Shown: piece by piece, positions 4,692 to 58,946 of the stretch
How the letters are laid out: the number at the start of each line of letters is the position of its first letter
Numbering within the stretch: the first letter of the stretch is position 1
Translations under genes and position numbers: made by a program
The notes under the pieces: generated by a model
What the model saw: the letters and a program-made list of their open reading frames with translations, nothing else
What the model was told of the DNA's origin: nothing
The model's database searches: none
IMG/VR virus record: IMGVR_UViG_3300035396_001032
Location: 17,214-81,213 of that record
DNA length: 64,000 nucleotides
Direction: 5' to 3' (one strand)
DNA from: a virus
Lineage: Duplodnaviria; Caudoviricetes

Positions 4692-4721
4692 TTGACAATC
4701 TTATTTTTTTAATTATCTTTG
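4692..4721 (+). promoter_or_regulatory. Bacteroidota primary-sigma promoter upstream of helicase
   Basis: TTG (4692-4694)-N19-TATCTTTG (4714-4721), matching the -33 TTG / -7 TAnnTTTG consensus. Confidence 0.8.
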
Positions 4722-10574: not shown

Positions 10575-10583
10575 GTATTTATA
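10575..10583 (+). promoter_or_regulatory. GTATTTAT phage promoter motif
   Basis: GTATTTATA 24 nt before ATG 10599. Confidence 0.7.
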
Positions 10584-10598
10584 TGAAAATGTGCACAG

Positions 10599-11219
10599 AT
10601 GAAATTAAAAAAGAAAGACTTACTTGAAATTATCGATTCAAATGGTGAGTTAATTGGTAATAGTGCTGTTCCAACAAGTGGTAGTGACTTGGAAAGTGCT
10701 GCCAGCAATACTACTGACAATAATGCTAAGATAGGTCAACAACCCTTCAGATATGACATGTTGGGTCGCTTTGGCTTTACACTTATGCCATTCATGGAAG
10801 GTAAGGAAAATCAGGGTCAACAAGAACAAATTAAAGATTGGACTGAACTCATGTACGAAATGTACATGAAAACCTTAGAGTATTATTACAGAAATCCAAA
10901 TAAACTAAAATCTGAATTCAGAATTCTTTCAAAAAAAGAAGAAGAAAATCCTTCAAATGAACGCACAAAAATTGAGGATTTTTGGGCAAAAGTAATTATT
11001 GATATAGTTGAGTCACACATTAAGAAGAGTGTAAAACCAATTGATGAAGCAGCAGTTGTTGAAGACAAGGTAGTTGATAAGAAAGGCGAGGATGAAATAT
11101 CAAATAAGTCTGAAGATAAAGAAGTTAGAGAAAAGAAAATCGAAAAAATTGCTGGTTTGATTAACAAACTGGAGAAAAAAGATATTGATAAGCTAATTAA
11201 TTTGTTGGAGAACAAGTAA
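10599..11219 (+). CDS. Hypothetical protein, charged, possibly head-associated
   Basis: 206-aa ORF after the motif; K/E-rich C-terminus. Confidence 0.75.
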   Translation: MKLKKKDLLEIIDSNGELIGNSAVPTSGSDLESAASNTTDNNAKIGQQPFRYDMLGRFGFTLMPFMEGKENQGQQEQIKDWTELMYEMYMKTLEYYYRNPNKLKSEFRILSKKEEENPSNERTKIEDFWAKVIIDIVESHIKKSVKPIDEAAVVEDKVVDKKGEDEISNKSEDKEVREKKIEKIAGLINKLEKKDIDKLINLLENK

Positions 11220-12007
11220 TGTCAAACCAAGCATTATATAATAACAAGTATATCGTTCCTTCAAATATTCTTGAATATATTCGAAGAATGATACTAACCT
11301 ATAAACCAAATGATGGTCAACGTGAAAAAGCTGACCATATTTTAACTCATGGTGGTAGTGATGGTATTACATACCCCTATATGGAAAAGTTGAAGCATGA
11401 CTTTAATAATAACGGATTTTCAAGTAATATTGAGTATGGTCTTGCAGGTGGTGAACTAATGAAAGCATTTGTTGAGTCAAAATTAAATCAAGAAAGGGAT
11501 GGGGTGAATAGGGCGAAACAAGTACGTCAGGACATGACATCGAACCCAAATTCTGAACTAAAACCATATCAAACACCACGTTTGAATGAGGATAAAAAGA
11601 AAAAGAAAGAACTGAAAAAGAACGCAGTGGCTGTTATTGTGAATGATGATAATAAAATATTGTTATTAAAAAGGGCAGACAATAAGGACATTTGGATGCC
11701 AAATAAATGGGCACTTGTTGGTGGTGCAATTGAAAAGGGCGAAACCCCACAGAAAGCATGTGAAAGAGAAATTAAAGAAGAGATTGGCTTGGAGATTAAA
11801 AAGTTTGTCAAATCTTTTAGTATTCATAGAAATGCAGATAGTGTTGAACACATTTTTGCCTGCAGGTATAAAGGTGAACCAACCGACATTGAACTTAATG
11901 ACGAAAATACTAATTATGGATGGTATGATACAAGTGAAATGAAGTATTTGGATATTGTTCCACATTTAATGGAATATATTACACTTGTCTTTAAAAAATA
12001 TGAATAA
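11219..12007 (+). CDS. Nudix hydrolase fused to an unknown N-terminal domain
   Basis: Complete Nudix box GGAIEKGETPQKACEREIKEEIG preceded by ILLLKR...KWALVG; about 120-aa N-terminal domain joined by an RLNED-KKKKK linker. Confidence 0.9.
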   Translation: MSNQALYNNKYIVPSNILEYIRRMILTYKPNDGQREKADHILTHGGSDGITYPYMEKLKHDFNNNGFSSNIEYGLAGGELMKAFVESKLNQERDGVNRAKQVRQDMTSNPNSELKPYQTPRLNEDKKKKKELKKNAVAVIVNDDNKILLLKRADNKDIWMPNKWALVGGAIEKGETPQKACEREIKEEIGLEIKKFVKSFSIHRNADSVEHIFACRYKGEPTDIELNDENTNYGWYDTSEMKYLDIVPHLMEYITLVFKKYE

Positions 12008-12010
12008 TTT

Positions 12011-12019
12011 GTATTTATA
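12011..12019 (+). promoter_or_regulatory. GTATTTAT phage promoter motif
   Basis: GTATTTATA 40 nt before ATG 12051. Confidence 0.65.
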
Positions 12020-12050
12020 GTAAATAACAGAAAAAATTAATAATACTAAA

Positions 12051-12308
12051 ATGAGTAGATTAGAAACAATAAGTAAGGAATATTATGATTGTTCACTTGC
12101 ACAAAATGCTGCACGTTATACAGTAAATAAGGAATATTTGCCAAGTACACCAGATACAATTTCAGATGGTGACATGAAAGGTAGAGACCCTAAAGATGGT
12201 AGTGCCTCAAGTTCAGTTGGAACAGTACTTGATATCGAAAAAAGAAATGCATTACTTGCAAGTAATAGGTATAATCAAAATAAAGAATATAATTCAGGAA
12301 ATGCATAA
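12051..12308 (+). CDS. Small hypothetical protein
   Basis: 85-aa ORF after the motif, TAATG-coupled to next gene. Confidence 0.7.
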   Translation: MSRLETISKEYYDCSLAQNAARYTVNKEYLPSTPDTISDGDMKGRDPKDGSASSSVGTVLDIEKRNALLASNRYNQNKEYNSGNA

Positions 12309-13255
12309 TGTTAACTGAGGAAAAATTATTGTTCGAAAACATTAAAAACTTTCGTCATCTTGTTTCAGAAGGCGTTGGTGGAAATTCTCTTGTGGATGCC
12401 ATAAACAACCATGAATGGATTTACTTATATTATTCTGGTGATGAAAAAACACCAAAAGGATATCGAACAATAAGACCTTATGTTTTGGGCACAAATAAGT
12501 CTGGCAATAAAGTACTGAGAGCATGGCAAGATAATCCAAAAAACAGTTATCATTTCGACAATAGACCAACACGTACTGATAGTCAAAATCACGATTTTTG
12601 GTCTGATGAAGAGGGTGTGAAACCGGGGTGGCGCATGTTCCGAGTCGATAAAATATCGAAAATTTTACCAATTGGTAAGAAGTTTCACGATTCAAATGGT
12701 GCGGTAATGATACCTGCAGGTTATCATGAAGGTGGTGATGATGATATGACAAGCATTGAAGCATATGTTTCTACAAAAACTAAACCCGATGTTGATTACA
12801 AATATTCAAAAGAAGTTCCAAGTACTGGCATGCCTGATAAGGAAGCTGTGTGGAATAGTATTCGTAGAGGTAATAAAAATAGGAAGAAAATCACGTCAAA
12901 TGATATTATTAAGTTACGTGACCTTGCAAGTAAGTTTCATAAGAAAAGCCTTAGCAATTACATGGTAGTAATTGACGATAAAAACAATTTTCAATTAATA
13001 ACTACCAATGATGTTAGAACAAAAAACATTCCTGATTCTGCAATTGTAGGAAGTTTACCTTATCTTTATGATTCGATTGTTAATGCAAATGCACCAGCAG
13101 ATGATAAATTCTTTAAAGACGTTAAAAACAAGGCACAGTCTGGCATTGAACAAAAGAAACAAAAGGATATGGATAAAGGATTTTCGAAAATTATGAAGGA
13201 AGAAGAAAAAATCACTACAATACCATTCAAAATAAAGACTTTTTTCAAACAATAA
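12308..13255 (+). CDS. WYL-like domain protein (no HTH)
   Basis: IYLYYSG...RTIRPYVLG...VLRAWQ...GWRMFRVDKI follows the WYL pattern (R-x-h-x-P...L-x-A-W...WR-x-FR-x-D-x-I); unknown C-terminal domain. Confidence 0.7.
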   Translation: MLTEEKLLFENIKNFRHLVSEGVGGNSLVDAINNHEWIYLYYSGDEKTPKGYRTIRPYVLGTNKSGNKVLRAWQDNPKNSYHFDNRPTRTDSQNHDFWSDEEGVKPGWRMFRVDKISKILPIGKKFHDSNGAVMIPAGYHEGGDDDMTSIEAYVSTKTKPDVDYKYSKEVPSTGMPDKEAVWNSIRRGNKNRKKITSNDIIKLRDLASKFHKKSLSNYMVVIDDKNNFQLITTNDVRTKNIPDSAIVGSLPYLYDSIVNANAPADDKFFKDVKNKAQSGIEQKKQKDMDKGFSKIMKEEEKITTIPFKIKTFFKQ

Positions 13256-13256
13256 C

Positions 13257-13265
13257 GTATTTATA
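13257..13265 (+). promoter_or_regulatory. GTATTTAT phage promoter motif
   Basis: GTATTTATA 31 nt before ATG 13288. Confidence 0.65.
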
Positions 13266-13287
13266 AAAAATAATAAAATTTTATAAA

Positions 13288-13962
13288 ATGGCAAAAACTC
13301 TTGACTTAAATAAAATAAAAGATGAAATCGATAGCCGTAAGAAGGAAAGAAATATGGTTTCATCAAGACTTGGAGAAACTGTAGGTAGTGGTATAAAACC
13401 ACGTGATGAATTCTTAAATGGATTATTGACAGCATACACAACTGGCAGAGATACTGCTTCAAGCAATTTAATTAAAATCGTTGAAAATAAGGTTGCAGCT
13501 AAACATGGCGAAGCACAGAAGCACGTAATTAGTGAAACTCCTGTTCAACAACAACAGCGTCCAGTACAGCATGGACAAGTAGATATGTCACCTGAAAGGG
13601 ATGAACAATTGTTTTTTGATTTGGAAAGAAAACGTAAACAAACTCTTGCGGAATCAATTGAAAATTTCGGTAAAATTCCAGCAATTGGTGCGCCAATGCA
13701 AAACAATCCACAATATGCTGGACAACCAATGCAGATTAATGAAGCATATCTTACAGAGAATGTTAAGAATACTGTAAATAATTACTTGAGTGAAAATCTC
13801 GGTCCTATCTTCGAAGAAGCAATCAAAAGCACAATCATTGAAATGTATGCCGTTGAAAGAATCAAAGAAGTACTTACAGAAAACAAAGAAATGATAAAAA
13901 CGCTTGTATATGATACAATTCGAGAAATACAAGCAGCTAACGCTAAAAAGAAAGTGCAATAA
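13288..13962 (+). CDS. Hypothetical protein
   Basis: 224-aa ORF, helical, Q/P-rich linker. Confidence 0.75.
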   Translation: MAKTLDLNKIKDEIDSRKKERNMVSSRLGETVGSGIKPRDEFLNGLLTAYTTGRDTASSNLIKIVENKVAAKHGEAQKHVISETPVQQQQRPVQHGQVDMSPERDEQLFFDLERKRKQTLAESIENFGKIPAIGAPMQNNPQYAGQPMQINEAYLTENVKNTVNNYLSENLGPIFEEAIKSTIIEMYAVERIKEVLTENKEMIKTLVYDTIREIQAANAKKKVQ

Positions 13963-13978
13963 CCATTGCACTTTTTTT
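13951..13978 (+). terminator. Intrinsic terminator
   Basis: AAAGTGCAAT-aacc-ATTGCACTTT followed by a T-run, spanning the stop of 13288..13962. Confidence 0.85.
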
Positions 13979-13989
13979 AGCTTAAGTTT

Positions 13990-13998
13990 GTATTTATG
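13990..13998 (+). promoter_or_regulatory. GTATTTAT phage promoter motif
   Basis: GTATTTATG 25 nt before ATG 14015, directly after a terminator. Confidence 0.7.
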
Positions 13999-14014
13999 AA
14001 TATAATATACAGAC

Positions 14015-16900
14015 ATGACATACGCAGAATTTCTTGAAAATATCTTAAGTGAACTACTTAAAATCAACTCATTTGCAGGTAGAATAAAATTTGCTGATGG
14101 AAACTTACAAAGAATTGGTAGTGGTAGTGGTAGAATCGTTTATGATATTGATGGTCAGAAAGTTCTAAAGCTGGCTAAAAATCCTAAAGGTGTTGCACAA
14201 AATGGTGCAGAAATGGATACTGGTCGTTATCAAGATACTCAACATATTGTTACAATTGTTTATGAAAGTGCTGATGATAATGCGTGGATAATTTCAGAAA
14301 AAGCAAAAAAAGTTACTGAAAGAAGAATAAAAGAACTTACAGGTATTCCAAGTCTTAGTGACCTATATTACTTTCTCAGTAATTATGAGTCACAAGCTAA
14401 GGGTCGTAGACCAATTCATCGTCAAGACCAAGAACTAACAGATTTTTTCTGGGAAAATGAATTTGCAACACAGATTGGCGATTTGATTGCTAATTACAGT
14501 CAACACGCAGGTGACATGGGAAGACCAAGTACATATGGTGAAGTACTTCGTGATGGTCAACCATCAATCGTTCTAACTGATTATGGTCTAAGTGATGAAG
14601 TGTATTCATCACACTATGAAAGAAAACCCAATAAATATCAAATGTATGAAATGTATAACTTTGCCGATGGCAATGATGATATGCTTTCAGACATTGGTAA
14701 TGTTGGTCAAGACCAAAGGCGTGGAATGTGGGCATTAATTCCACAAGGTGTGGGCGATGGTGATGAACCAATGAATGAAGAATTCATTGACTATGTTCAA
14801 AACAGAAATAAATATCCTGAAAAACGTTTACCTAATCTACCATTCTTAGCTGACAAGTTCAATGAATGTGTAAATAATATCAAAGAAACCCTTAACGTTG
14901 TTGAAAACAAAAAATTGTTTTACAATAACTTATTGGAACTTCAAGATTACCTTGTTTCCCAGAAGTTTTATGAGAAAGAACAACTAAATCATGAGGAATA
15001 TGTTATTAATGAAGCCGATGTTCCTGATGTTCAAATGTTTAGTTTATCTGACGCAAATTATGCAACGAATATGGCAAATATCGTTGCACAGAAATTAGGA
15101 TTAACTACTCCGAAATTATTAGGTAAGGGCGAAAATGGTTTTGCATTTGAAATCAATGATAATTTGGTGTTAAAACTAACTGCAGATGTTAGTGAAGCAG
15201 ATGCTGGAATAAAACTAATGAGAGGAAACCCAAAATATCTTCCCGAAATTTTTAACATATATAAAATTGTTGATACTGAAGCGAATAAAGCATATTTTGG
15301 ATTACTTGAAGAAAATATTAATGAAAAACCACTCGAAAGATTTAGAAAATTTGATGAAGACCTTGCATTGATATTCCCAAATCAAGGACTTAATATGTTT
15401 TATAAGCCAATGAGAAGAAATTTTGATTATAACACATTGGCTGAAAAGGCGAAGGAAATTCTAACAGCTAATCCAGAAGCAAATGTTTCAGAACCCGACA
15501 GAAAAGCTGCATATGATTACGTCATTGGATTGCTGAACATCAAACAAGAAATGGATAACTTTAGTATTAAGTCAAATGACTATACCGTAATAGCAAATCT
15601 TGGATATAAAAATGGTGTTCTTAAATATTTTGACGTAGGTGGTCGTATGGGTACTCCTGAACCACCAATTGACGATAATAATCTATTATATATTCCCGAA
15701 GATGCTACTTCTAAGTTCTCAACTATTGATTCAATAGGCAGGGATGATTTTCCAGTGTATGATAATAACGATACATCACCAATGACTGATAATAATATCA
15801 GAACTAATGAAGATTTAGAATATCGTCATGCAAGTGATGCAACTCAAGATAAATATACGATTGACGAACTTGTTGAAAGGGTTTTGTCATCAATGGCGGG
15901 GAGCAGTACTGTTAATGTAAAAAAAAAGTGTAAGTTAGGTGGTCAAGGTAATACAAGTGCTGCTTGTAATCAGGGTGATATCAGTAACTTAGATATTAAA
16001 CCACTTACTGAAGCATCAATTCCATATAATAAAACTTATTGGGGATGGGTATCACCAAGCAATGAATTTATTCAAGTTCCACAACTACAACATGCAGAAT
16101 ATATTCGAACTAAATACCCAAATCTTTTCATGCTTGACGATGTATTTGAACAAGCATTTAAAGATGGTTGGGTAAGAGTTATATATCAATATTATCAAGA
16201 TAGATTCTCTGGTAGTTTATCAATTAATGGTTACGATAAGAAACGTGTGAAACACGTGTTGAAAACCATGTTTTTTGACAGCATTAAATATGGTGATAAT
16301 CAAATATATTTGGCATATGAAAATCCTGATGGTGGTGACATGTTCAGAACCAATAGTGCAGATAATAAAGCAAAACTGGCGAGTTATATATCTGAAAACG
16401 TTTTAAATGAAACTGGTGAGGGCAATGCTCAACCATATGATGTTACGATTAAAAGAAGTGATGATTATAAAAAGGAATATTCGTTTCGAACCGAAGATAA
16501 TGATTATTATGAAATCATATTTAACGAACAATCATTAGGTGATAATAAATGGTATGTTGCATTTGGTACTAAAGATGCTGATACCGACCATTATAATTTC
16601 AATGTTGTTGTGAATAAAGGCAAGCTATATAGAGTAATGGCAACCTTATTAAAGGTGATGAAAGGCTTCATTGCTAATACAAAACCAGTTAGCATTGAAA
16701 TTGAACCCACAAAAAGAAATACGATGCATGTGCAAGATAGAGGAAGATTTAAACTATATTTGCAATATATTAAGAAAAATTTACCACCTGATTATGAATT
16801 TCTCGAAACTCATGATGCAATCTTCATAGAGAAGAAGAGAGGTGTTAGTGAAACACAATTAATATTAAATAATATTAATGAGGCTAAATTATTATTGTAA
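14015..16900 (+). CDS. Multidomain protein with two protein-kinase-like domains plus unknown C-terminal modules
   Basis: Kinase 1: IGSGSGRIVY (14117), VLKLA, QNGAE, HAGD, LTDYG (14579). Kinase 2: LGKGENGFAF (15122), VLKLT, SEA, SND..IANLG, YFDVG (15632). Confidence 0.75.
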   Translation: MTYAEFLENILSELLKINSFAGRIKFADGNLQRIGSGSGRIVYDIDGQKVLKLAKNPKGVAQNGAEMDTGRYQDTQHIVTIVYESADDNAWIISEKAKKVTERRIKELTGIPSLSDLYYFLSNYESQAKGRRPIHRQDQELTDFFWENEFATQIGDLIANYSQHAGDMGRPSTYGEVLRDGQPSIVLTDYGLSDEVYSSHYERKPNKYQMYEMYNFADGNDDMLSDIGNVGQDQRRGMWALIPQGVGDGDEPMNEEFIDYVQNRNKYPEKRLPNLPFLADKFNECVNNIKETLNVVENKKLFYNNLLELQDYLVSQKFYEKEQLNHEEYVINEADVPDVQMFSLSDANYATNMANIVAQKLGLTTPKLLGKGENGFAFEINDNLVLKLTADVSEADAGIKLMRGNPKYLPEIFNIYKIVDTEANKAYFGLLEENINEKPLERFRKFDEDLALIFPNQGLNMFYKPMRRNFDYNTLAEKAKEILTANPEANVSEPDRKAAYDYVIGLLNIKQEMDNFSIKSNDYTVIANLGYKNGVLKYFDVGGRMGTPEPPIDDNNLLYIPEDATSKFSTIDSIGRDDFPVYDNNDTSPMTDNNIRTNEDLEYRHASDATQDKYTIDELVERVLSSMAGSSTVNVKKKCKLGGQGNTSAACNQGDISNLDIKPLTEASIPYNKTYWGWVSPSNEFIQVPQLQHAEYIRTKYPNLFMLDDVFEQAFKDGWVRVIYQYYQDRFSGSLSINGYDKKRVKHVLKTMFFDSIKYGDNQIYLAYENPDGGDMFRTNSADNKAKLASYISENVLNETGEGNAQPYDVTIKRSDDYKKEYSFRTEDNDYYEIIFNEQSLGDNKWYVAFGTKDADTDHYNFNVVVNKGKLYRVMATLLKVMKGFIANTKPVSIEIEPTKRNTMHVQDRGRFKLYLQYIKKNLPPDYEFLETHDAIFIEKKRGVSETQLILNNINEAKLLL

Positions 16901-16951
16901 AATAATAGACCCGTTTAGAATATTTCGTGCACTTCTATACTATTTATATTT

Positions 16952-17779
16952 ATGGGAAACAAATGGAATGATTTGGAAATAAATTTACTAAGAAGCATTT
17001 ATTCTGAAACAAATGATGCTGATATAATTACTTATTTTAGTGGACGAACATTAACATCAATTAAAGTTAAGGCAAAAAGATTAAAGTTTTATCGTAATGT
17101 TGATGTTAAAGCATCTAATAGACGTAGTGCAAGTACTGGTGAAAAAAATGGCATGTATGGAAAATCGTCAAAGATAAGTGGCAAAACATATGATGATTAT
17201 TATGGTGTTGAAAAATCAAATTCCATAAAAAAAAAGCTGTCTATAGATAAAATTGGTAAAATTGGTTTGGCTGGCGAAAAAAATGGTATGCATGGGAAAA
17301 TACCACACAATAAAGGTATTTCACCAAATGAAACAATAAAACTGAAAATTAAAAGAGGTATTATTGACTATTGGAATAATTTAAATGAAATAGATTTAAA
17401 AAAAAGAAAAGATAAATTAAGAGAAGATTGGATTATTAAAAGGGATAAATATTCGGAAATCGATACATTACCTGAAAAAATTGCAGAAAAATTATTAATT
17501 AAGTTGTGTTTAACATATCAAAAAAAAATAAACATTGGTTATTATAATTGTGACTTTGTAGTTAATGATACAATTCTTGAAGTTCAAGGAGATTATTGGC
17601 ATGGCAATCCTGAGTTTTATAATTCGTTTGATAGTATACAAGAAAAAAATATTAATCGTGATAGAAGAAAATTAAATTATTTACAATCAAAAGGATTTAA
17701 AATAATATATTTGTGGGAAAATGATTTAAAAAAGAATCTCGATTATTGTGAAAAAACATTAATAAAAGAATTAAAATGA
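16952..17779 (+). mobile_element. Free-standing putative homing endonuclease (Myb/HTH + NUMOD3-like repeats + Vsr/DUF559-like nuclease)
   Basis: Two GEKNGM(Y/H)GK repeats; C-terminal CDFVV...ILEVQGDYWHGNP...RDRRK..YLQSKGFKIIYLWENDL; lower G+C than flanks in spot counts (13/60 at 17401-17460 vs 23/60 at 18301-18360). Confidence 0.75.
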
Positions 17780-19602
17780 GTAATATACAAGACTTTATAT
17801 TAAATATAAGACAAAAGTTATTTATTAAATCACTAATAACTGATTTAAAATCAGACATTTATGTTGTGGGTGGAGCAACCAGAGACCTTATACTAAATAA
17901 GCCCAATAAGGATATTGACTTAATTGTTCGAAATGTGCCAATAGATATATTAATTGCACATCTACAAAAATTTGGTAGAGTAGATGCTGTTGGTAAATCA
18001 TTTGGTGTACTTAAGTTTATTGATTCTGATGGACTTGACTATGATATAGCATTACCTCGTAAAGAAATGCCAAACGGTGAAGGCGGTTATCGTGGTTTTG
18101 ATGTTCAAAGTGATGAAAATCTGCCAATTGAAGACGACCTAATCAGAAGGGACGCTAAACTGAACGCAATGGCAATTAGTATTAATAGTGGAAAATTTAT
18201 TGACCCATTGGGTGGTTTGGATGATATCAAAAATAAATTAATATCTGCTGCCAATCCAGATGCATTTAGTGACGACCCATTGAGAATGATTCGGATGGTG
18301 GCTTTCGCAAGTCGTTTTGGTTTTACAATTGAGCCAGAGACTATGCAAATGATAATCGATAATGCACATCGTGTAAAAGAAATTGCACCTGAAAGAATTT
18401 TGACTGAATTTGATAAAATAATCAAAAAGGGTAATAAATTGACAGGTGTTGAGTTGCTTGCAAATACAGGTTTATTTAAGCAGATATTTGGTAATGAAAT
18501 CAAGCCTTCAATGCTTGGTCGTAGAGATTTTGACGGTGTGCGAACTATGGGTGAATTTATATTTCTTATGACATATGGAGTTGTGCAGCATCCTGCTGCA
18601 TTTTTCAAGGAGAAACTAAAGGGTGATATTGATTCATTCAAAGAGATTAAAGCACTTGAACAGGCATTTGATAACGCCAGTGCAGAAAACAGTATTGTTG
18701 CAAGAACTATTGCACACAATATGTTTGTTATTTCACCACCATCGTTACAAAGCCAGATACTGCCAACTGCAATTGAAACTGCAGCACAGGAATTACTTCA
18801 GGGTAAATACCCAAAGACTGTGAATGAACTTGCTTTAAATGGTAATGACTTAATGCAATTAGGATTAAAGGGTAAGGAGATTGGTGATGCACAAAAAATG
18901 ATGTTATTGAAAATCTATTCAGATATTGTTGAAAATAATAAAGAAGATTTACTATCTTTGTTGGGCAAAAATGATGTCAATGAATATGGATTCTCTGAAC
19001 CTAAAAATTCTTGGGAAGCTGATGGTCAGGAAGTTAATGTAGACTTCTTTATCGAAAAATATGACCAATGGAATCAAGGTGAGAGATTCAGAGACCCTTC
19101 AAAAGAGTCTGTTTTACGATTCTTCGAAGACGAATTTGTTGAATTAGTTGGTGATGAAAAGCTAAGACAAGAATTGCTCTGGGCATTGACAGATAGGGAT
19201 GTACTTAACGAAAACGTTGAAATGAATAATATTGCATATACTGGTATCGTTCTTGATGAAACATCAAAACAGAAACTTATTAAGGTTTTCAGTAAAATGA
19301 TACCCGAAGGTTGGGAAGTTATTGCACATCATATGACTTTGAACTTAGGTGCAATTGATTCTAAATATGTGCAGGATTTGGATAAGGAAATCGAACTAAC
19401 TGTTGTTGATTATGCGATAGATGATAAGGTTATGGCAGTTGGTGTGGATGGCTACCCAACTAACAACAAGAAAGCACACATTACCTTAGCAGTTAATAGG
19501 CAGGGTGGCGGTAAGCCAATGATGTCAAACAGTTTAACTGAATGGAGACCAATTGAGTTTCCGCTTGTATTGAAAGGAATTGTAACTCAAGTAAGAAAAT
19601 AA
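17776..19602 (+). CDS. cca: Class II CCA-adding/tRNA nucleotidyltransferase fused to C-terminal 2H phosphoesterase
   Basis: YVVGGATRDL...KDIDL (DxD), RRDAKLNAMA, FSDDPLRMIR, PERILTEFDK. C-terminal HHMTL (about 19327) and HITL (19477) are the paired HxT motifs of 2H enzymes. Confidence 0.88.
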   Translation: MSNIQDFILNIRQKLFIKSLITDLKSDIYVVGGATRDLILNKPNKDIDLIVRNVPIDILIAHLQKFGRVDAVGKSFGVLKFIDSDGLDYDIALPRKEMPNGEGGYRGFDVQSDENLPIEDDLIRRDAKLNAMAISINSGKFIDPLGGLDDIKNKLISAANPDAFSDDPLRMIRMVAFASRFGFTIEPETMQMIIDNAHRVKEIAPERILTEFDKIIKKGNKLTGVELLANTGLFKQIFGNEIKPSMLGRRDFDGVRTMGEFIFLMTYGVVQHPAAFFKEKLKGDIDSFKEIKALEQAFDNASAENSIVARTIAHNMFVISPPSLQSQILPTAIETAAQELLQGKYPKTVNELALNGNDLMQLGLKGKEIGDAQKMMLLKIYSDIVENNKEDLLSLLGKNDVNEYGFSEPKNSWEADGQEVNVDFFIEKYDQWNQGERFRDPSKESVLRFFEDEFVELVGDEKLRQELLWALTDRDVLNENVEMNNIAYTGIVLDETSKQKLIKVFSKMIPEGWEVIAHHMTLNLGAIDSKYVQDLDKEIELTVVDYAIDDKVMAVGVDGYPTNNKKAHITLAVNRQGGGKPMMSNSLTEWRPIEFPLVLKGIVTQVRK

Positions 19603-19603
19603 T

Positions 19604-20110
19604 ATGGCAGATTGGAAAGAATCATCTAAACTTGGTTTTGATTTTGAAGATTTTTGTTTGAAAGATATTAACGAAAAGGTTAATCCACTTGCATATAGAA
19701 ATCAGATTAAAAGTGAATATAGCTTTTATGATATAATACTTCATGATGGTAATTTTGCTGAAAATCATCAACAAAAAACTATTGAATGTAAGTTTGATGA
19801 AAAGGCTAATGAAACTGGTAATATTTGTATTGAAACTGGTTGTAATGGTAGATTGTCTGGATTATTGATTACGAAAGCTGATTATTGGCAGATTGGCGAT
19901 GGATTTCAAATGTTTTTAATTAAAACGGATATGATTAGGACATGTATCAACAATCATCCAAATGAAATTCAATATAAAAGGAAATATCCAGTAACACAGG
20001 AAGATGGTGTTACAAAAGATATGACATTTTATTTAATACCTAAACGATTATTTATTGAATATTGTTTAGAGGTTGCTGGAATTAATGATATGACATATAA
20101 AGATTTATGA
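19604..20110 (+). CDS. PD-(D/E)xK restriction-endonuclease-fold protein
   Basis: GFDFED...YDIIL...TIECKFD...TGNICIE...SGL..TKADYW pattern of small phage PD-(D/E)xK nucleases. Confidence 0.65.
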   Translation: MADWKESSKLGFDFEDFCLKDINEKVNPLAYRNQIKSEYSFYDIILHDGNFAENHQQKTIECKFDEKANETGNICIETGCNGRLSGLLITKADYWQIGDGFQMFLIKTDMIRTCINNHPNEIQYKRKYPVTQEDGVTKDMTFYLIPKRLFIEYCLEVAGINDMTYKDL

Positions 20111-20673
20111 TTAAAAGATTAGTAGCATTTGACTTTGACGGAACACTGATGAATTCTCCTGAACAAGAGAATGGCATACAGTTATGGCAAGATAAAATGG
20201 GTTACCCATATCCACATAAAGGCTGGTGGGGCAGACCTGAAAGCCTTGACTTAGATGTTTTTGACATCAGACCGTTTCCAAGCGTGCTGAAACAATTAGA
20301 AAAAGAGGTTTCAACACCAGATACTTATGTGATAATATTAACATCACGTATGGAAAAGTTACGCCCACAACTCGAAGCAGTCTTAAATAAAAACAATATT
20401 CGTGTTGATAAGGTTGACATGAAGCGTAGTGAAAGAACGAAGGGTGAGAAAATTTTAAGGTATTTAGAAGAGTTTCCAAGCATTGAAGAGATTAATGTAT
20501 ATGATGACCGTGATACAGATATTCAGTCATATGAGGGTATTCGTAACATGATTCCTAAAAACATAGTATTTAATATATACTTGGCTGCAAGTGGTAGTCT
20601 ATCATTGCTTGAAGCCAAAAATAAAATAGTTACCATTGTAAATGAGGTGATTTCGAGTTTTATAAAAAAATAG
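20107..20673 (+). CDS. HAD-family phosphatase (Swiss-Army-Knife RNA-repair-like HAD)
   Basis: LVAFDFDGTL (motif I), ILTSR (II), TKGEK (III), VYDDRD (IV); HKGWWGRPESL segment typical of this HAD clade (by eye). Confidence 0.85.
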   Translation: MIKRLVAFDFDGTLMNSPEQENGIQLWQDKMGYPYPHKGWWGRPESLDLDVFDIRPFPSVLKQLEKEVSTPDTYVIILTSRMEKLRPQLEAVLNKNNIRVDKVDMKRSERTKGEKILRYLEEFPSIEEINVYDDRDTDIQSYEGIRNMIPKNIVFNIYLAASGSLSLLEAKNKIVTIVNEVISSFIKK

Positions 20674-20677
20674 TAAT

Positions 20678-21046
20678 ATGAAAAAAGTATTAATTCCCGA
20701 AGATAATGACATGAATTTCTATCTGTTTACTGAAATGTTGAACGAATTTGATATTGAATTAATTCAGGTAAAAAATGGCTTACAGGCGGTGGAATATTGT
20801 GATAAGTATTCAGATGTTTGTTTAATACTAATGGATATTAATATGCCAGTAATGGGTGGAGAAGAGGCTGCGGTTATTATCAAACAAAGACATCCAGAAA
20901 TTCCAATAATATCACAAACAGCATATAGTGTTTATGGTGCAGTTTCTGAGAAAAATAAAAGTTGTTTTGCACAATTCATTGAGAAACCAATTAATATTGA
21001 GGGATTAAAAGCTATTATTAGGAAATATTGTTTCGATGAAAAATAA
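20678..21046 (+). CDS. Stand-alone response-regulator receiver (CheY-like)
   Basis: LIPEDN (acidic pair), LILMDINMPVMGG (phospho-Asp), IISQTA (Thr), IEKPI (Lys-Pro). Confidence 0.9.
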   Translation: MKKVLIPEDNDMNFYLFTEMLNEFDIELIQVKNGLQAVEYCDKYSDVCLILMDINMPVMGGEEAAVIIKQRHPEIPIISQTAYSVYGAVSEKNKSCFAQFIEKPINIEGLKAIIRKYCFDEK

Positions 21047-21053
21047 AACATCT

Positions 21054-21062
21054 GTATTTATA
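21054..21062 (+). promoter_or_regulatory. GTATTTAT phage promoter motif
   Basis: GTATTTATA 23 nt before ATG 21077. Confidence 0.7.
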
Positions 21063-21076
21063 TTAAAAATATTACG

Positions 21077-21907
21077 ATGATTGACATGAGATATAAACCA
21101 CGTTTTTTACCACAAGTAAGTGCACCATTTGATATTGTGCTACAAAAACTTGATGATGATGGTGTGGGTTATGAAACAACAGAAGTTGACCCTAATGAAT
21201 TACAACCATCACAAGGAATTACATTTAGTGATGAAGTTGGTCATGTAAATGTCGATGACATGAATCCAATTTGGATTAGCAATGACATGAAAGTTCTTGA
21301 TGGTCATCATAGAATGGTTCGTGCATTACTTGATAACATTAAAATAAAGGCAGTTAAAATTGACTTGAATGACAAGGATGCCAGTAGAGTTTTAAATAAG
21401 ATTCAGGACATTTACGAATACGAGCAGTCAAGTAATATGGAAGAGGTTGTTGGACAAGATGTAATAAATTCCGACAATCAAATCAATAGTGGAGTTAGTG
21501 ACAGCGAATTTCTATCTTCATTAGAAGAAGATAATCTTGCAGTCCAGACTGAAACTCCGAGTGCCAATCAGCAATCAATTATTGCATATCGAAAAGAACC
21601 GATAAAAGAAAACTCAATCGTTGGAAACTTTTTTACTCTAAAGCCAGTAAAAGGATTCGATAAATATCAGATTGATTTTGAAAATCTATTAGATACTGCT
21701 TCACTTGGCGTTACATATAAAGATGGTCAACAGCCTGTGGATATTTTGGCAAAAAGCTGGTTTCCACACGTAAACTTTGAAAAACTAAGTGAACAATATA
21801 ATTCACCCTCAATTAATTTAAAAAATAAAGCTATTGCAGAAAAAGCAAGAAAAATGGGTTATGATGGAATCAAATACGGTGACACACTAATCCAAGGATT
21901 AAAATAA
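21077..21907 (+). CDS. ParB/sulfiredoxin-like domain fused to a possible ADP-ribosyltransferase-like domain
   Basis: VDPNELQPSQ...PIWIS..MKVLDGHHR (ParB/Srx GHHR motif). C-terminal AYR...GNFFT...KMGYDGIKY resembles polyvalent-protein ART folds (weaker call). Confidence 0.6.
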   Translation: MIDMRYKPRFLPQVSAPFDIVLQKLDDDGVGYETTEVDPNELQPSQGITFSDEVGHVNVDDMNPIWISNDMKVLDGHHRMVRALLDNIKIKAVKIDLNDKDASRVLNKIQDIYEYEQSSNMEEVVGQDVINSDNQINSGVSDSEFLSSLEEDNLAVQTETPSANQQSIIAYRKEPIKENSIVGNFFTLKPVKGFDKYQIDFENLLDTASLGVTYKDGQQPVDILAKSWFPHVNFEKLSEQYNSPSINLKNKAIAEKARKMGYDGIKYGDTLIQGLK

Positions 21908-21915
21908 CTAAAACT

Positions 21916-22287
21916 ATGTGCACATACAAAATTACTAACATAACAAACAGTCTTGGAAAACGTGAACACAATTTCAACGCAGTACTTAATGTTGAATATG
22001 TAGATAATATTACGAAGAAAATAATTGCTGTGAAACCGGGGGAAACCGTCTTTCTAACAGTGCCTTCACTTCCACTATCAGTACATAGATTAAGAATAAA
22101 AAACCTAATCACAGTATCTGAAATTGGAACAGTTGAACTCACTAAGTTAGTAGAAGAAGCTAAACCTAAAACAGTGAAAAAATCTGTCGTGGTAGATGAT
22201 GACGAAGAAAAAATTGTTGCAGCAAAGACAGCATTCAATAAAAAAAAACTAAGTAAAAAAGAAGAGGAAACTGAGACAGAAGCCTAA
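21916..22287 (+). CDS. Hypothetical protein
   Basis: 123-aa ORF with a charged disordered tail, followed by a terminator. Confidence 0.7.
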   Translation: MCTYKITNITNSLGKREHNFNAVLNVEYVDNITKKIIAVKPGETVFLTVPSLPLSVHRLRIKNLITVSEIGTVELTKLVEEAKPKTVKKSVVVDDDEEKIVAAKTAFNKKKLSKKEEETETEA

Positions 22288-22310: not shown

Positions 22311-22337
22311 AAAAGCCAACTAAATGTTGGCTTTTTT
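22311..22337 (+). terminator. Intrinsic terminator
   Basis: AAAAGCCAAC-taaat-GTTGGCTTTT plus T-run. Confidence 0.85.
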
Positions 22338-26322: not shown

Positions 26323-26721
26323 ATGAATTCATATAATGTAACATTTCCATTTCAGGATAATAATACTACAAGAGGTTTTCTATCAATGAATCGTGTAACT
26401 AAAGATTCATATAGTTCCAATTTATTGTTATTATTATTGACACAAAAGGATGAAAGATACTGTGAACCCGAATATGGTACGAATTTATTGAAATTTATCT
26501 TCGAACCTAACGATAATATCACTGCAAGCATGGTTGAAGAAGAAATTAAAAATACTGTTTCAAAATATATTCCACAGATTAAAATAAAATCAGTTTCATT
26601 TAATTGGCTGATGGATGATTATAAGCAGCCAATATCTGAGAATCAATTAAACGTTAACGTAAAGTTTGAATATAATGAAGGTGCACTTAGTGAAACAGGT
26701 AATATTGATTTAAATTTTTAA
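26323..26721 (+). CDS. Baseplate wedge protein, T4 gp25-like
   Basis: NLLLLLLTQKDERYCEPEYGTNLLKFIFEP...EEIKNTVSKYIPQIKI matches the GPW/gp25 pattern. Confidence 0.88.
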   Translation: MNSYNVTFPFQDNNTTRGFLSMNRVTKDSYSSNLLLLLLTQKDERYCEPEYGTNLLKFIFEPNDNITASMVEEEIKNTVSKYIPQIKIKSVSFNWLMDDYKQPISENQLNVNVKFEYNEGALSETGNIDLNF

Positions 26722-42041: not shown

Positions 42042-43112
42042 ATGATAAGGGGACAAGAATTTCATTCGATAGTTCAGAACGTCTTTGGTGATGTGAATGG
42101 TCTCATGCAATCCGAACAATTGCAGGTTAACTGTCCTCATTGTCAGGAACGAGAAGGACTTGCATATCCTGATGGGAAATTTAATCTTGAAATCAACACT
42201 GCCAAAAGAATGTTTAGGTGTTGGAAGTGTGATGAACCAAGATTTTCAGGCTCATTAGGAAAACTTGTCAGAATGTTTGGTAGTCGTATTGATTACGAAA
42301 TGTATAAGTCATATGCAGGAATTTATCGTGATTATGATTACGTTGGTGACGATGATGAAGTAGAAACACTTCATGTTCACCTACCCGAAGAAATGATTTT
42401 ATTTTCACAAATGGAAGCAGGTAATGCTGAACATTTTGCTGCTTATAATTACATGGTGAATGACAGAAAAATATCAAGAGATATCATATTAAGATATCGG
42501 CTTGGTTTTTGTACTACTGGAAAGTATGCTGAAAGAGTAATAATTCCATCATATGATAAATATGGTGATGTTAATTATTTTGTCGGCAGATATTATGGAA
42601 ATGACCTGAAAATTAAAAAGAAACTACCATATCTTAATCCACAGGCAGATAAAGATGCGATTATTTTTAATGAAGGTCTTGTTAATTGGGACTCTACTGT
42701 ATACCTTGTTGAAGGTGCGTTTGAAATGTTAAGTTTTCCTGTGAATATTATTCCAATATTGGGAAAAACATTATCAACCACATTGTTTTTAAAATTGCAA
42801 GAACTAAAACCTGATGTCGTTGTGTTGTTAGACCCTGATGCCTACAAAAATGCTGTCGAACTCTATTATACGTTATACACTATTTATGTGGGTTGTGAGG
42901 AAAGAGTTAAACTGGTTAAAATCCCAAGCGAAAAAGATTTAGATGACCTTCGTAAAAAACAAGGTATTGATGAAGTTATTAAAAGTCTTTATACTGCAAG
43001 AGGTTTAACTGTTGACGATTACTTTATTAAAAAGTTGGATAAACCGTATGATAAACGAGCAGGAAGATATCAATCTTATTCAAAGTATTTTGAATGGGAA
43101 TCACCACGCTGA
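42042..43112 (+). CDS. dnaG: DNA primase (Zn-finger + TOPRIM)
   Basis: NCPHC...FRCWKC zinc-binding domain; RVIIPSYD...YFVGRY; YLVEGAFE; LLDPDA (DxD). Confidence 0.88.
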   Translation: MIRGQEFHSIVQNVFGDVNGLMQSEQLQVNCPHCQEREGLAYPDGKFNLEINTAKRMFRCWKCDEPRFSGSLGKLVRMFGSRIDYEMYKSYAGIYRDYDYVGDDDEVETLHVHLPEEMILFSQMEAGNAEHFAAYNYMVNDRKISRDIILRYRLGFCTTGKYAERVIIPSYDKYGDVNYFVGRYYGNDLKIKKKLPYLNPQADKDAIIFNEGLVNWDSTVYLVEGAFEMLSFPVNIIPILGKTLSTTLFLKLQELKPDVVVLLDPDAYKNAVELYYTLYTIYVGCEERVKLVKIPSEKDLDDLRKKQGIDEVIKSLYTARGLTVDDYFIKKLDKPYDKRAGRYQSYSKYFEWESPR

Positions 43113-43719
43113 AGAAGTATTTTTCAATAAATATCAAAAAATAGTTAAGAATTATATTAGAGGTAAGTTTACGAAAATTAATAGTGATGACCTTGATGAT
43201 TGTGTCTCAGAGATTTTAATTAAAACGTTTCAATATCTTAGCAAATACGATAAAGAAAAGTCAAGCGTTAAGACTTGGGTGTTAGTTATAGCTAAACACT
43301 ACTTAATTGATAGGTGGCGTAGCAATACTGCGGTTTCTGCATCAACTGGTACACATACCTTTACGATATCAACAGACACAGCATTTGACATAGGAAGTAC
43401 ATCATCAAATAGTGGGTTTATCGCAAGCACATCAAATAGTGGTTTTATCACTGCCAGTAACGTTAATAATTTAGCATTTACTGCAAATAATACATTCACT
43501 TCCAGCAACAATTCTTTCGAAAACTGTAGTGCAATTAATTATATCTCAACACAGATTTCTCCAACAGATTTTACACTTTTGGATATGAAATACGTTCAGG
43601 GTTATGACTATAATGAAATCGGTAAAGAGTTTAACGTTACAAGTTCTACAATCAGCAATAGGGTTAACTATATTAAAACCAAGTTGAAAAAAAATTATTC
43701 TGAGATAATTTACGACTAA
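43048..43719 (+). CDS. ECF-like RNA polymerase sigma factor
   Basis: Region 2: DLDDCVSEILIKTFQYLSKYD..KSSVKTWVLVIAKHYLIDRWR. Region 4: LLDMKYVQGYDYNEIGKEFNVTSSTISNRV. S/T/N-rich spacer. Confidence 0.85.
   Translation: MINEQEDINLIQSILNGNHHAEEVFFNKYQKIVKNYIRGKFTKINSDDLDDCVSEILIKTFQYLSKYDKEKSSVKTWVLVIAKHYLIDRWRSNTAVSASTGTHTFTISTDTAFDIGSTSSNSGFIASTSNSGFITASNVNNLAFTANNTFTSSNNSFENCSAINYISTQISPTDFTLLDMKYVQGYDYNEIGKEFNVTSSTISNRVNYIKTKLKKNYSEIIYD
43403..43449 (+). repeat. 27-bp-period direct repeat in the sigma spacer
   Basis: CATCAAATAGTGGGTTTATC (43403-43422) and CATCAAATAGTGGTTTTATC (43430-43449), encoding (S/T)SNSGFI twice. Confidence 0.85.
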
Positions 43720-45166: not shown

Positions 45167-45580
45167 TTACTTAATTTCAATTGTTTTCTTACCTAACTTC
45201 GTATTGTCCTCAAGTTTTGGTATAGTTATTTTGAGTATCCCGTCAATTAACGAAGCATCGATTTTTTCTTTATCAACATTATCTGGAAGTTTGAAAGACC
45301 TTTCATATTTTCCAAAATACGTTTCTTTACGATTATATTTTACGTCTTTACTTTCTTTACGTTCAGCATTAATCTTCAACATATTTTTTTCAATGTCAAT
45401 GCTGATGTCTTCTTTTTTTAAGCCAGCCAATAATAATTCGATTTGAAACTCTTTCTCGTTTTCAATCACGTCATGTACTGGCGTTTTTGCCATTGTATCC
45501 ATTTCAGAAAGTTCAAATAAATCATCAAGAATTGATGTAAATAAATTAATTGATGGTGATGTGTGTCTAATAGTTATCAT
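45167..45580 (-). CDS. hsp20: Small heat-shock protein (Hsp20/alpha-crystallin)
   Basis: PVHDVIENEKEFQIELLLAGLKKEDISI...ETYFGKYERSFKLPDNVD..IDASL.DGILKITIPK. ATG 45580 preferred over GTG 45613. Confidence 0.93.
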   Translation of the reverse strand: MITIRHTSPSINLFTSILDDLFELSEMDTMAKTPVHDVIENEKEFQIELLLAGLKKEDISIDIEKNMLKINAERKESKDVKYNRKETYFGKYERSFKLPDNVDKEKIDASLIDGILKITIPKLEDNTKLGKKTIEIK

Positions 45581-45619
45581 AATTTTTGTTTTAATAATAA
45601 TGTTATTTTTCACATATAG

Positions 45620-45705: not shown

Positions 45706-45736
45706 TTGCATATTCGGATGATTTTAAATATATTTG
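45706..45736 (+). promoter_or_regulatory. Bacteroidota primary-sigma promoter upstream of sbcD-sbcC
   Basis: TTG (45706-45708)-N20-TATATTTG (45729-45736). Confidence 0.8.
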
Positions 45737-56306: not shown

Positions 56307-57062
56307 ATGGCAAGTTTAAAAAAAATGTTGTTTGGTGGCTCAACAATCGATACGCCAAAACAAGCTGAAAAGGAAAAGGTTATTGAAAGTAAAGCATTAG
56401 CTAAATTAAATATAAGTGATATTATTTCAGTTGATTTTCCTGATGAACAATATTTTAAAGAGCAGACAGATAAAAAACAAATTGTGATACATCATACAGT
56501 TAGTGGTCAAGGAATTGAAGGGGATTTAGCATGGTGGAGAAGTACTGTTGATAGAATCGGTACTGCAATAATTGTTGGCTGGGATGGTAAAATTTATCAA
56601 TGCTTCAGTACTAAATATTGGGCGCATCACCTTGGCACACATGCTGCGAATAACAAAGCACTTAATATGGCAAGTATTGGTCTTGAAATCGATGCTTGGG
56701 GTGGTTTGATTCGTACTAATAGATTATGGTATCCAACAAAATTTGATGAAGTTACTAAACAATATGTTGCAAATACTAATGCAAAACCAGTAGAAAACGT
56801 TCAGGTATATGAAGAAGGTTTCATGGGTTACTATGGATATGAAAAATATACCGATGCACAGATTGAAGCAGTACGACAATTATTGGTGTTCTGGAGTGAG
56901 AAATTCAACATACCACTAACATACAATGAAGATATGTGGAATTTATCAGATAAAGCATTACGTGGCGATGCTGGCGTTTGGACACACGTTAGTTTTAGGG
57001 GAAGTGGAAAATCCGATTGTCACCCACAACCAGAATTGATACAGATGTTAAAGTCATTATAA
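56307..57062 (+). CDS. N-acetylmuramoyl-L-alanine amidase (Amidase_2), endolysin candidate
   Basis: IVIHHT (56481), WAHHLG, SIGLEI, YTDAQIEA, GVWTH...KSDCHP: zinc ligands present. Confidence 0.88.
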   Translation: MASLKKMLFGGSTIDTPKQAEKEKVIESKALAKLNISDIISVDFPDEQYFKEQTDKKQIVIHHTVSGQGIEGDLAWWRSTVDRIGTAIIVGWDGKIYQCFSTKYWAHHLGTHAANNKALNMASIGLEIDAWGGLIRTNRLWYPTKFDEVTKQYVANTNAKPVENVQVYEEGFMGYYGYEKYTDAQIEAVRQLLVFWSEKFNIPLTYNEDMWNLSDKALRGDAGVWTHVSFRGSGKSDCHPQPELIQMLKSL

Positions 57063-58938: not shown

Positions 58939-58946
58939 TATATTTG
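58939..58946 (+). promoter_or_regulatory. Bacteroidota -7 element
   Basis: TATATTTG 39 nt before ATG 58978; no correctly spaced TTG found. Confidence 0.5.

Follow-up and report, generated by a model that had tools for sequence, protein, structure and literature searches.

The DNA analysed here, referred to as the window, is a stretch of 64,000 nucleotides (nt) from a virus of the Caudoviricetes (IMG/VR record IMGVR_UViG_3300035396_001032, positions 17,214 to 81,213). The subject of this analysis is a block of genes, i1 to i13, that occupies positions 10,599 to 22,287 beside the PolB gene, and in which two open reading frames (ORFs), i6 and i8, encode the parts of a split multi-domain protein (Table 1). 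The window has a G+C content of 33%, almost every gene lies on the + strand, and zero tRNA genes were found within it. The parent contig, of 81,213 bp, is 27% complete according to CheckV and lacks a terminal repeat.

A megablast search of the region against cultured phages matched nothing, and PolB is just 25-30% identical to Salinibacter and cyanophage polymerases. IMG/VR, by contrast, holds 71 related loci with a PolB identity of 52-78%. Complete genomes of 321-365 kb, bearing terminal repeats, are among them, so the lineage is a clade of jumbo phages; the phage of the window is an uncultured, T4-related member with a genome of about 330 kb. The complete relatives each encode a gp23-type capsid protein, an adjoining protease of the Peptidase_S77 family (that of T4 gp21; adjacent to the capsid gene in all five) and two sigma factors, which places the lineage in the jumbo-phage 'group 2', characterised by a gp23 capsid, sigma factors and no RNA polymerase (PMC7824862). 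The host probably belongs to the Bacteroidota, because promoters of the TTG..TAnnTTTG type are found 5' of replication genes. The region had been described as an island in a first-pass annotation of the sequence; it is instead a syntenic core block in about 40 relatives, the order SNF2, PolB, i1-i6, CCA-2H being retained in all related loci of sufficient length. The sporadic genes are those for the DUF559 endonuclease (4 loci), the 168-amino acid (aa) protein (7 loci) and the receiver domain (1 other locus).

In at least 13 relatives, i6 and i8 correspond to a single ORF of 1,293-2,174 aa, and the fused form is the one found in most. Some of the fused orthologs also contain ART-PolyVal (8e-14, 2.5e-9), GNAT and Acb1/2H modules, of which ART-PolyVal is absent from the window's copy; in one ortholog the 2H module shows a weak match to the anti-CBASS family Acb1. 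Since such disparate modules (kinase-like, ART or GNAT, nucleotidyltransferase, 2H) are predicted within one ORF, i6/i8 is to be classed as a polyvalent protein as defined by Iyer et al. 2017 (PMC5512222). The ends of BLAST high-scoring segment pairs (HSPs) reveal that its modules have been duplicated, deleted and replaced among orthologs. In the window, i6 ends five codons past a joint glutamate (I-N-E956), the DUF559 gene comes next, and its last nucleotides are shared with the start of the CCA-2H ORF. The DUF559 gene, inserted exactly at a module joint, is probably a mobile (homing-type) endonuclease gene. In G001, one of the complete relatives, a different gene of 334 aa lies at the same joint on the opposite strand (94665-95669, + strand of G001), and at locus L006 the ORFs are split at the CCA joint without any insert. 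Insertions or splits thus seem to recur at the joint before the CCA-adding module.

The joints between modules were located from the HSP ends between orthologs, independently of any motif. A lack of enrichment of [LIVM]-x-E at domain boundaries had been named by the first-pass annotation as the outcome that would speak against its proposal that these proteins are cut by a phage protease. That outcome was not obtained: of 2,255 internal HSP ends in 25 proteins, 58.6% lie within 5 aa of the glutamate of such a motif, as against 24.9% (standard deviation 0.9) of random positions. For control motifs of equal density the corresponding values are 17-41%. At seven of the nine internal junction peaks in the window the glutamate is no more than 4 aa away (E333, E562, E618, E666 and E799 of i6; E403 and E479 of i8). 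At the pre-CCA joint the motif stands eight residues before an LPF[KR] landmark in 13 of 13 fused orthologs, the modules upstream of it being unrelated. Joint sites have asparagine at P2 in 27% of cases, compared with 10% elsewhere, and favour a polar residue at P1'. The seven linker pentapeptides originally singled out are all present, six of them at these independently defined joints; the seventh, RLNED (L-N-E124 of i2), lies at a domain boundary and is invariant in 30 of 30 Nudix orthologs. Over the whole block there are 89 [LIVM]-x-E sites against 72 expected (1.23-fold, shuffle p about 0.014), and, at one site per 43 aa, this excess alone cannot justify the choice of seven sites. The comparisons of orthologs nevertheless indicate that the motif is strongly and specifically enriched at the module joints of the 961-aa and CCA-2H proteins.

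A protease of the appropriate family is present in the lineage, as stated above, and its gene was not found on this contig because the contig is a 27% fragment from which the head module is missing. The protease ORF encodes 642 aa in G001 (214152-216080), 635 aa in G003 (L105) and 234-239 aa in the three others; in the longer forms the Peptidase_S77 match is interrupted between its two halves by about 385 inserted aa. The same tripeptide is a feature of the putative head substrates: the capsid proteins of the five relatives have an invariant M-I-N-E, followed by S, directly before the conserved mature core, and the protein at the position of gp22 (the scaffold) contains 27-32 sites against 14-19 expected. 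When the 335 proteins of at least 100 aa in G001 are ranked by motif excess, the scaffold-like protein is first, the i5 ortholog third, the ortholog of an 886-aa ORF seventh and the i6 ortholog tenth. The 224-aa protein i5 itself has 12 sites against 5.6 expected, and its family 383 against 164 (2.3-fold), akin to the scaffold-like protein, making it a candidate prohead-protease substrate of an internal-head or scaffold-like kind. The excess is smaller in the families of the 206-aa (1.31-fold) and 315-aa (1.23-fold) proteins and nil in the Nudix family apart from the invariant L-N-E124. None was found in the HAD, receiver, ParB-like, 168-aa and 123-aa families (ratios 0.82-1.21).

The 886-aa ORF (53186-55846, + strand), which lies outside the block, is the top [LIVM]-N-E outlier on the contig, with 10 sites against 1.2 expected (p about 6e-7), and its ortholog is the top outlier in G001 as well. 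It is a candidate for a second protease-cut polyprotein.

The N-termini of the polyvalent proteins may also be informative. T4 internal proteins (IPs) II and III begin MKTYQEFIAE (read from NC_000866), a targeting peptide in which positions 4 and 7 are important for targeting, and positions 8 and 10 for processing (PMC9026906). The polyvalent ORFs begin MTY-x-EF-(L/K)..-L-x-E13, an N-terminus found nowhere else in either proteome, that of G001 or of the contig; i6 starts with MTYAEFLENILSE, within the peptide MTYAEFLENILSE13 (L-S-E at 14045-14053), the likeness to the T4 peptide being that of a short motif compared post hoc. Many phage contigs encode the kinase-like module as a protein of its own, about 220 aa long, and elsewhere it is fused to ART-PolyVal, GNAT, ParB_N or Mom. 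These stand-alone homologs carry N-terminal extensions, from 4 to about 160 aa in length, whose last residues are [LIVM]-x-E at the conserved x-Y-P start of the domain, exactly in 25 of 38 cases and within 2 aa in 36 of 38. In P0035, P0036, P0041, P0063, P0067, P0070 and P0075, stand-alone proteins from other large phage contigs, these starts are 10-13 residues long, for instance MYEYKQFFAE before AYP or MKYKDFYSDLTE before DYP. Such short extensions resemble the T4 capsid-targeting sequence together with a gp21-type site, which is suggestive. The split CCA-2H protein begins MSNIQDFILN (17776-17811), with similar starts at L002, L064 and L006; its I-Q-D-F-I loosely echoes the Y-Q-E-F-I of T4, there is no [LIVM]-x-E nearby, and the likeness could be due to chance.

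The functional assignments made in the first-pass annotation stand to varying degrees. Those of the Nudix, CCA-adding, 2H, HAD and receiver domains are borne out by hidden Markov models (HMMs). The nucleotidyltransferase of i8 matches the PolyA_pol head (8e-21), its RNA-binding domain (6e-17) and phrog_2244 (5e-55), confirming by HMM a class II enzyme with a predicted CCA-adding activity, and the 2H module has two HxT motifs (HHMT and HIT) and, when scanned alone, reaches 23.3 bits with tRNA_lig_CPD against a cut-off of 23. The first kinase-like module is moderately supported as such: it has an invariant G-loop, G37, K52, E66, D167 and D189xG191, its profile finds SteC kinase at 8e-4 with PKC next at about 1, and Kinase-PolyVal was an Atlas lead (0.92). 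The second resembles the first just marginally; searched through G001 and the contig, the module 1 profile finds the polyvalent protein alone, with module 2 at a domain E-value of 2.8. The WYL-like barrel of i4 is predicted by fold only: an AlphaFold2 (AF2) model with a predicted local distance difference test (pLDDT) score of 72.5 has WYL proteins (PafBC, BrxR, CapW, DriD) as all of its top 11 Foldseek matches, at E-values of 6e-3 to 1e-2 and a TM-score of about 0.2, and WYL was not matched in Pfam. The nuclease call is sub-threshold in Pfam (DUF559 and MTES_1575). The ParB/ART-like label of i12 is unconfirmed; it derives from a DGHHR motif and Atlas leads (ART-PolyVal 0.83, ParB_N 0.76), and Pfam and PDB profile searches, ParB_N included, gave no match. 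No match was found for i1 in Pfam, PHROG or PDB, for the profiles of i1, i4, i5 and i12 among PDB sequences, or for i12 and the other small proteins in the fused orthologs (BLAST, phmmer), and the same four profiles found no paralogs in the G001 proteome or that of the contig itself.

Table 1. Coordinates, in the window, of the block's genes, joint sites and transcription signals, and of the sigma factor gene
Feature	Position	Strand	Evidence
Phage promoter GTATTTAT(A)nnAAA, before the 206-aa gene (start 10599)	10575-10589	+	Motif; kept at G001 ortholog
i1, 206-aa conserved protein; invariant L-L-E10 near N-terminus, I-D-E150 / V-V-E155	10599-11219	+	tblastn, 49 relatives
i2, N-domain without assignment, L-N-E124 (nt 11582-11590), Lys-rich linker, Nudix hydrolase	11219-12007	+	Pfam NUDIX 1e-19
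Phage promoter (start 12051)	12011-12025	+	Motif
i3, small conserved protein, 85 aa, no motif excess	12051-12308	+	
i4, 315 aa, putative WYL/Sm-like beta-barrel (about residues 35-155); invariant V-S-E21 (nt 12362-12370)	12308-13255	+	
Phage promoter (start 13288)	13257-13271	+	Motif; conserved in G001
i5, 224 aa; invariant I-N-E152 (nt 13735-13743) behind hypervariable linker	13288-13962	+	
Hairpin and T-run terminator between two transcription units	13951-13974	+	
Phage promoter of polyvalent-protein unit (start 14015)	13990-14004	+	Motif
i6, 961 aa, N-terminal part of split polyvalent protein: kinase-like module 1, divergent kinase-like module 2, three unassigned modules	14015-16900	+	
i6 joint site I-N-E333	15005-15013	+	
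i6 joint site I-P-E562	15692-15700	+	
i6 joint site I-D-E618	15860-15868	+	
i6 joint site L-T-E666	16004-16012	+	
i6 joint site L-N-E799	16403-16411	+	
i6 joint site I-N-E956	16874-16882	+	
i7, DUF559/Vsr-like endonuclease gene between polyvalent halves	16952-17779	+	PHROG endonuclease 7e-7
i8, 608 aa, C-terminal polyvalent part: CCA-adding nucleotidyltransferase, small domain, 2H phosphoesterase (predicted)	17776-19602	+	
i8 joint site V-N-E403	18976-18984	+	
i8 joint site L-N-E479	19204-19212	+	
i9, 168 aa, sporadic, no motif excess	19604-20110	+	phrog_13596
i10, HAD phosphatase, RNA-repair 'Swiss Army Knife' type	20107-20673	+	HAD_SAK_1 28.7 bits, above cut-off; phrog_415 PNK
i11, stand-alone receiver domain	20678-21046	+	Response_reg 9e-16; one other locus only
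Phage promoter (start 21077)	21054-21068	+	Motif; conserved in G001
i12, 276 aa, ParB/Srx-like DGHHR motif, unassigned C-domain	21077-21907	+	phrog_2859
i13, 123-aa protein	21916-22287	+	
Strong intrinsic terminator at block end	22311-22335	+	
ECF-type sigma factor, outside block	43048-43719	+	Sigma70_r2 2e-11, ECF region 4

The transcription signals of the block bear on when it is expressed. The element GTATTTAT occurs 24 times in the window, 22 of these on the + strand, where 7.6 copies would be expected, and none of 100 shuffles reaches 24. Seventeen copies are intergenic, 21-61 nt 5' of start codons and frequently right behind a hairpin and T-run. The extended consensus, GTATTTAT(A)nnAAA, is without a -35 element, a single-element architecture like that of T4 late promoters. 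In G001 there are 147 copies, 82 of them no more than 80 nt from a start on the same strand, with a peak at 22-25 nt, the element is kept at 13 orthologous genes, and the head operon has one-mismatch variants of it. Judged by its enrichment, strand bias, placement 21-31 nt from starts and conservation at orthologous genes, the element is a genuine phage promoter. The claim that the block is driven by the same motif as the tail and baseplate genes is upheld: its five copies are all intergenic, 23-40 nt before starts, and others precede the baseplate wedge gene at 26323 and the tail fibre gene at 59844, as well as the amidase gene at 56307 and several unknown genes. The companion claim, that replication genes use host-type promoters, holds for SNF2/PolB (4692-4721), SbcCD (45706-45736) and the 3'-5' exonuclease (58939-58946), which have Bacteroidota-type promoters (TTG, 15-23 nt, TAnnTTTG) on their 5' side, but not fully for the exonuclease-primase-sigma operon, upstream of which are both GTATTTAT (39892) and a TAnnTTTG box. 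Host-type promoters are found at 20 genes in G001 (2.1 expected), and the two classes are nearly exclusive there, with 81 genes of the phage type, 20 of the host type and 1 with both. A scan for E. coli-type sigma-70 promoters gave 71 against 69 by chance, and this candidate class was rejected. The phage promoters are presumably read by the sigma factor encoded at 43048-43719, of the extracytoplasmic function (ECF) type, or by the lineage's second sigma factor. The gene at 43048-43719 shares 65 nt with the 3' end of the primase gene and is hidden by a simple filter for non-overlapping ORFs. Late timing of the block would be expected from the genes that this promoter serves. One of the two minus-strand ORFs of the contig, 45167-45613, points away from the SbcCD gene and the host-type promoter of that gene; inspected by eye, it resembles small heat-shock proteins (Hsp20/alpha-crystallin type).

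In T4, cleavage by gp21 takes place after L/I-X-E, and the enzyme both breaks down the core proteins and trims off targeting propeptides (PMC9026906, PMC5694885). Given these facts, the simplest account is that the polyvalent protein and the 224-aa protein are themselves prohead-protease substrates, and therefore head-internal and ejected, a reading judged slightly more probable than not. The block would be transcribed from the single-element promoters found at baseplate, tail-fibre and lysis genes and, with one mismatch, at head genes; the polyprotein together with the 224-aa protein, and perhaps the 206-aa, WYL-like and Nudix proteins too, would go into the prohead; and the protease would cleave after the glutamate of [LIVM]-x-E at every joint. 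The single-domain enzymes so released would then exit with the DNA and act ahead of phage gene expression, rebuilding tRNA 3' ends or clearing 2',3'-cyclic or signal nucleotides, and would also phosphorylate proteins of the host. Packaging, cleavage, injection and the targets of the enzymes are what we infer from the sequences. As regards its parts, the first-pass proposal of packaged and cleaved effectors is retained for the polyvalent and 224-aa proteins, given the joint motif and the protease in the lineage; the case for the 206-aa, WYL-like and Nudix proteins is weaker, and for the HAD, receiver, ParB-like, 168-aa, 123-aa and DUF559 genes it is unsupported. A role as ordinary accessory enzymes inside the cell is the likelier one for the HAD, receiver, ParB-like and small proteins.

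Several points weigh against packaging. All of the support consists of comparative sequence analysis of an uncultured lineage, [LIVM]-x-E is a short motif, and HSP ends are not independent observations. The block adjoins PolB and is distant from the head module, with some 110 kb between the two in G001. No terminator was found between PolB and the first block promoter, so early read-through is possible, and the promoter also serves non-structural genes (the exonuclease-primase-sigma operon and the amidase), so that its class may be general middle/late and not one for virion genes in particular. The N-terminal likeness of i6 to the T4 peptide may simply be the first helix of a domain. The CCA-2H half is here a separate ORF without that peptide, and might not be packaged in this genome. 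With regard to the kinase-like module, no Pfam kinase family, Kinase-PolyVal (PF18762) included, was matched in 44 homologs, and the AF2 model of module 1 (pLDDT 59) gave just generic helical matches in a fold search.

In a rival account the proteins would be intracellular enzymes only, expressed in the middle or late period, left uncut or cut by another protease, with the motif a feature of linkers or domain caps and nothing packaged. The position beside the replication genes, the use of GTATTTAT at non-virion genes, the free-standing CCA-2H half and the location of the lineage's RNA ligases elsewhere all sit well with this; the RNA-repair enzymes of T4 likewise work intracellularly. It is nonetheless the less probable account. 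The motif is specific, control motifs matched to it in density showing no enrichment at the joints, and its position is kept between unrelated flanking modules. Furthermore, [LIVM]-x-E is found also at the capsid propeptide boundary and is abundant in the scaffold-like protein, and module 1 at the polyprotein's N-terminus has no [LIVM]-x-E before it, hence the motif is not required for the fold.

Two other explanations are far less probable. The joint motif could be a boundary for recombination or cassette exchange, comparable to the conserved peptides found ahead of variable toxin domains in polymorphic toxin systems, without any cleavage. The shuffling, duplication and replacement of modules among orthologs would suit such a function, and cassette-like loci for kinase-containing polyvalent proteins have been noted by Iyer et al. 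(PMC5512222). A degenerate tripeptide (9 nt, with P2 free), however, offers no useful DNA homology, and it also occurs at boundaries that are not shuffled, namely the capsid propeptide, the Nudix linker and the N-terminal extensions of stand-alone proteins, making this the least probable account. Scarcely better is the extension of packaging to the whole region, such that every protein (Nudix, WYL-like, kinases, CCA-2H, nuclease, HAD, receiver and ParB-like) would be packaged, trimmed and injected. All block genes do belong to units under the phage promoter, and DdrB-like ParB proteins are incorporated into the head of phage P1 (PMC5512222); against this, five of the families lack any motif excess, the DUF559 and receiver genes are sporadic, and the endonuclease interrupts the polyprotein and is no part of it.

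The packaging of the polyvalent and 224-aa proteins is not a new idea in kind, being the polyvalent-protein hypothesis (PMC5512222) again, but with another protease. Polyvalent proteins were described as large phage polypeptides of disparate enzymes, among them a truncated clade of protein kinases, found in Bacteroidetes phages, and ART, GNAT, Pol-beta nucleotidyltransferase, 2H and ParB domains; they are encoded among late genes and predicted to be packaged and injected (PMC5512222). Orthologs studied here share the ART-PolyVal domain, the promoter is common to baseplate, tail-fibre and lysis genes, and baseplate genes follow 4 kb downstream of the block. They differ in that neither a zincin-like metallopeptidase nor a MuF domain was matched by Pfam in i6, i8 or five fused orthologs, in having a CCA-adding enzyme within the string, in leaving the Kinase-PolyVal model unmatched, and in their predicted processing by a T4-type prohead protease at [LIVM]-x-E, which was not described there. 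No literature linking polyvalent proteins with prohead-protease processing was found among searchable papers.

With IPI-III and Alt of T4, the system would share a gp21-family protease, L/I-x-E sites (predicted here), injection of effectors along with the DNA and, perhaps, short targeting propeptides at the N-terminus. The T4 cargo, however, consists of single-domain proteins with one N-terminal cut, whereas cuts are predicted here at every joint, and the T4 IPs are hypervariable while the block is conserved across the lineage. The jumbo phages phiKZ, 201phi2-1 and SPN3US also have a homolog of gp21, by which many proteins inside the head, the ejection and inner-body proteins, are processed after glutamate (PMC5694885, PMC9026906), but with S/A/G-x-E sites, long propeptides, virion RNA polymerases and another capsid lineage.

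The CCA-adding enzyme, 2H module and HAD phosphatase would fit a set for the healing of tRNA 3' ends, the degradation of nucleotide signals being an alternative role for the 2H module. A CCA enzyme, 2H and HAD_SAK set, with ligases in the relatives, parallels known phage tRNA repair (T4 Pnkp/Rnl1, the CCA-adding enzymes of jumbo phages and the 'Swiss Army Knife' HAD), from which it differs in that the nucleotidyltransferase and 2H domains lie inside a polyvalent protein, unlinked to a ligase. In the complete relatives, RNA ligases of the Rnl1 and Rnl2 types are encoded far from the block (248207-248767 and 21049-21546 in G001; also in G004 and G005), and RtcB was not found. Since these ligases are encoded elsewhere, the lineage's RNA-repair set is fuller than the window shows.

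A more far-reaching possibility, advanced tentatively and considered somewhat less than an even prospect, is that the prohead protease doubles as the maturase of a modular effector polyprotein. Swappable cassettes (kinase-like, ART, GNAT, CCA, 2H and unknown folds) between [LIVM]-x-E sites would be loaded as one string by means of a peptide like that of the T4 IPs, cut and injected, with the 224-aa protein and the 886-aa protein (53186) in the same cargo set. Polyvalent proteins are found widely among phages, but their packaging and release have been largely a matter of conjecture, and the present analysis makes predictions at the level of residues, in the form of 13 named cut sites and one candidate 13-residue loading peptide. 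If correct, these would join the capsid targeting and gp21 processing of T4 with polyvalent effectors, whose cargo cassettes could be swapped between protease sites, and tRNA 3'-end repair or the removal of nucleotide signals would be delivered to the host in pre-made form. Such a protein would also be a natural template for loading multiple enzymes into T4-like heads.

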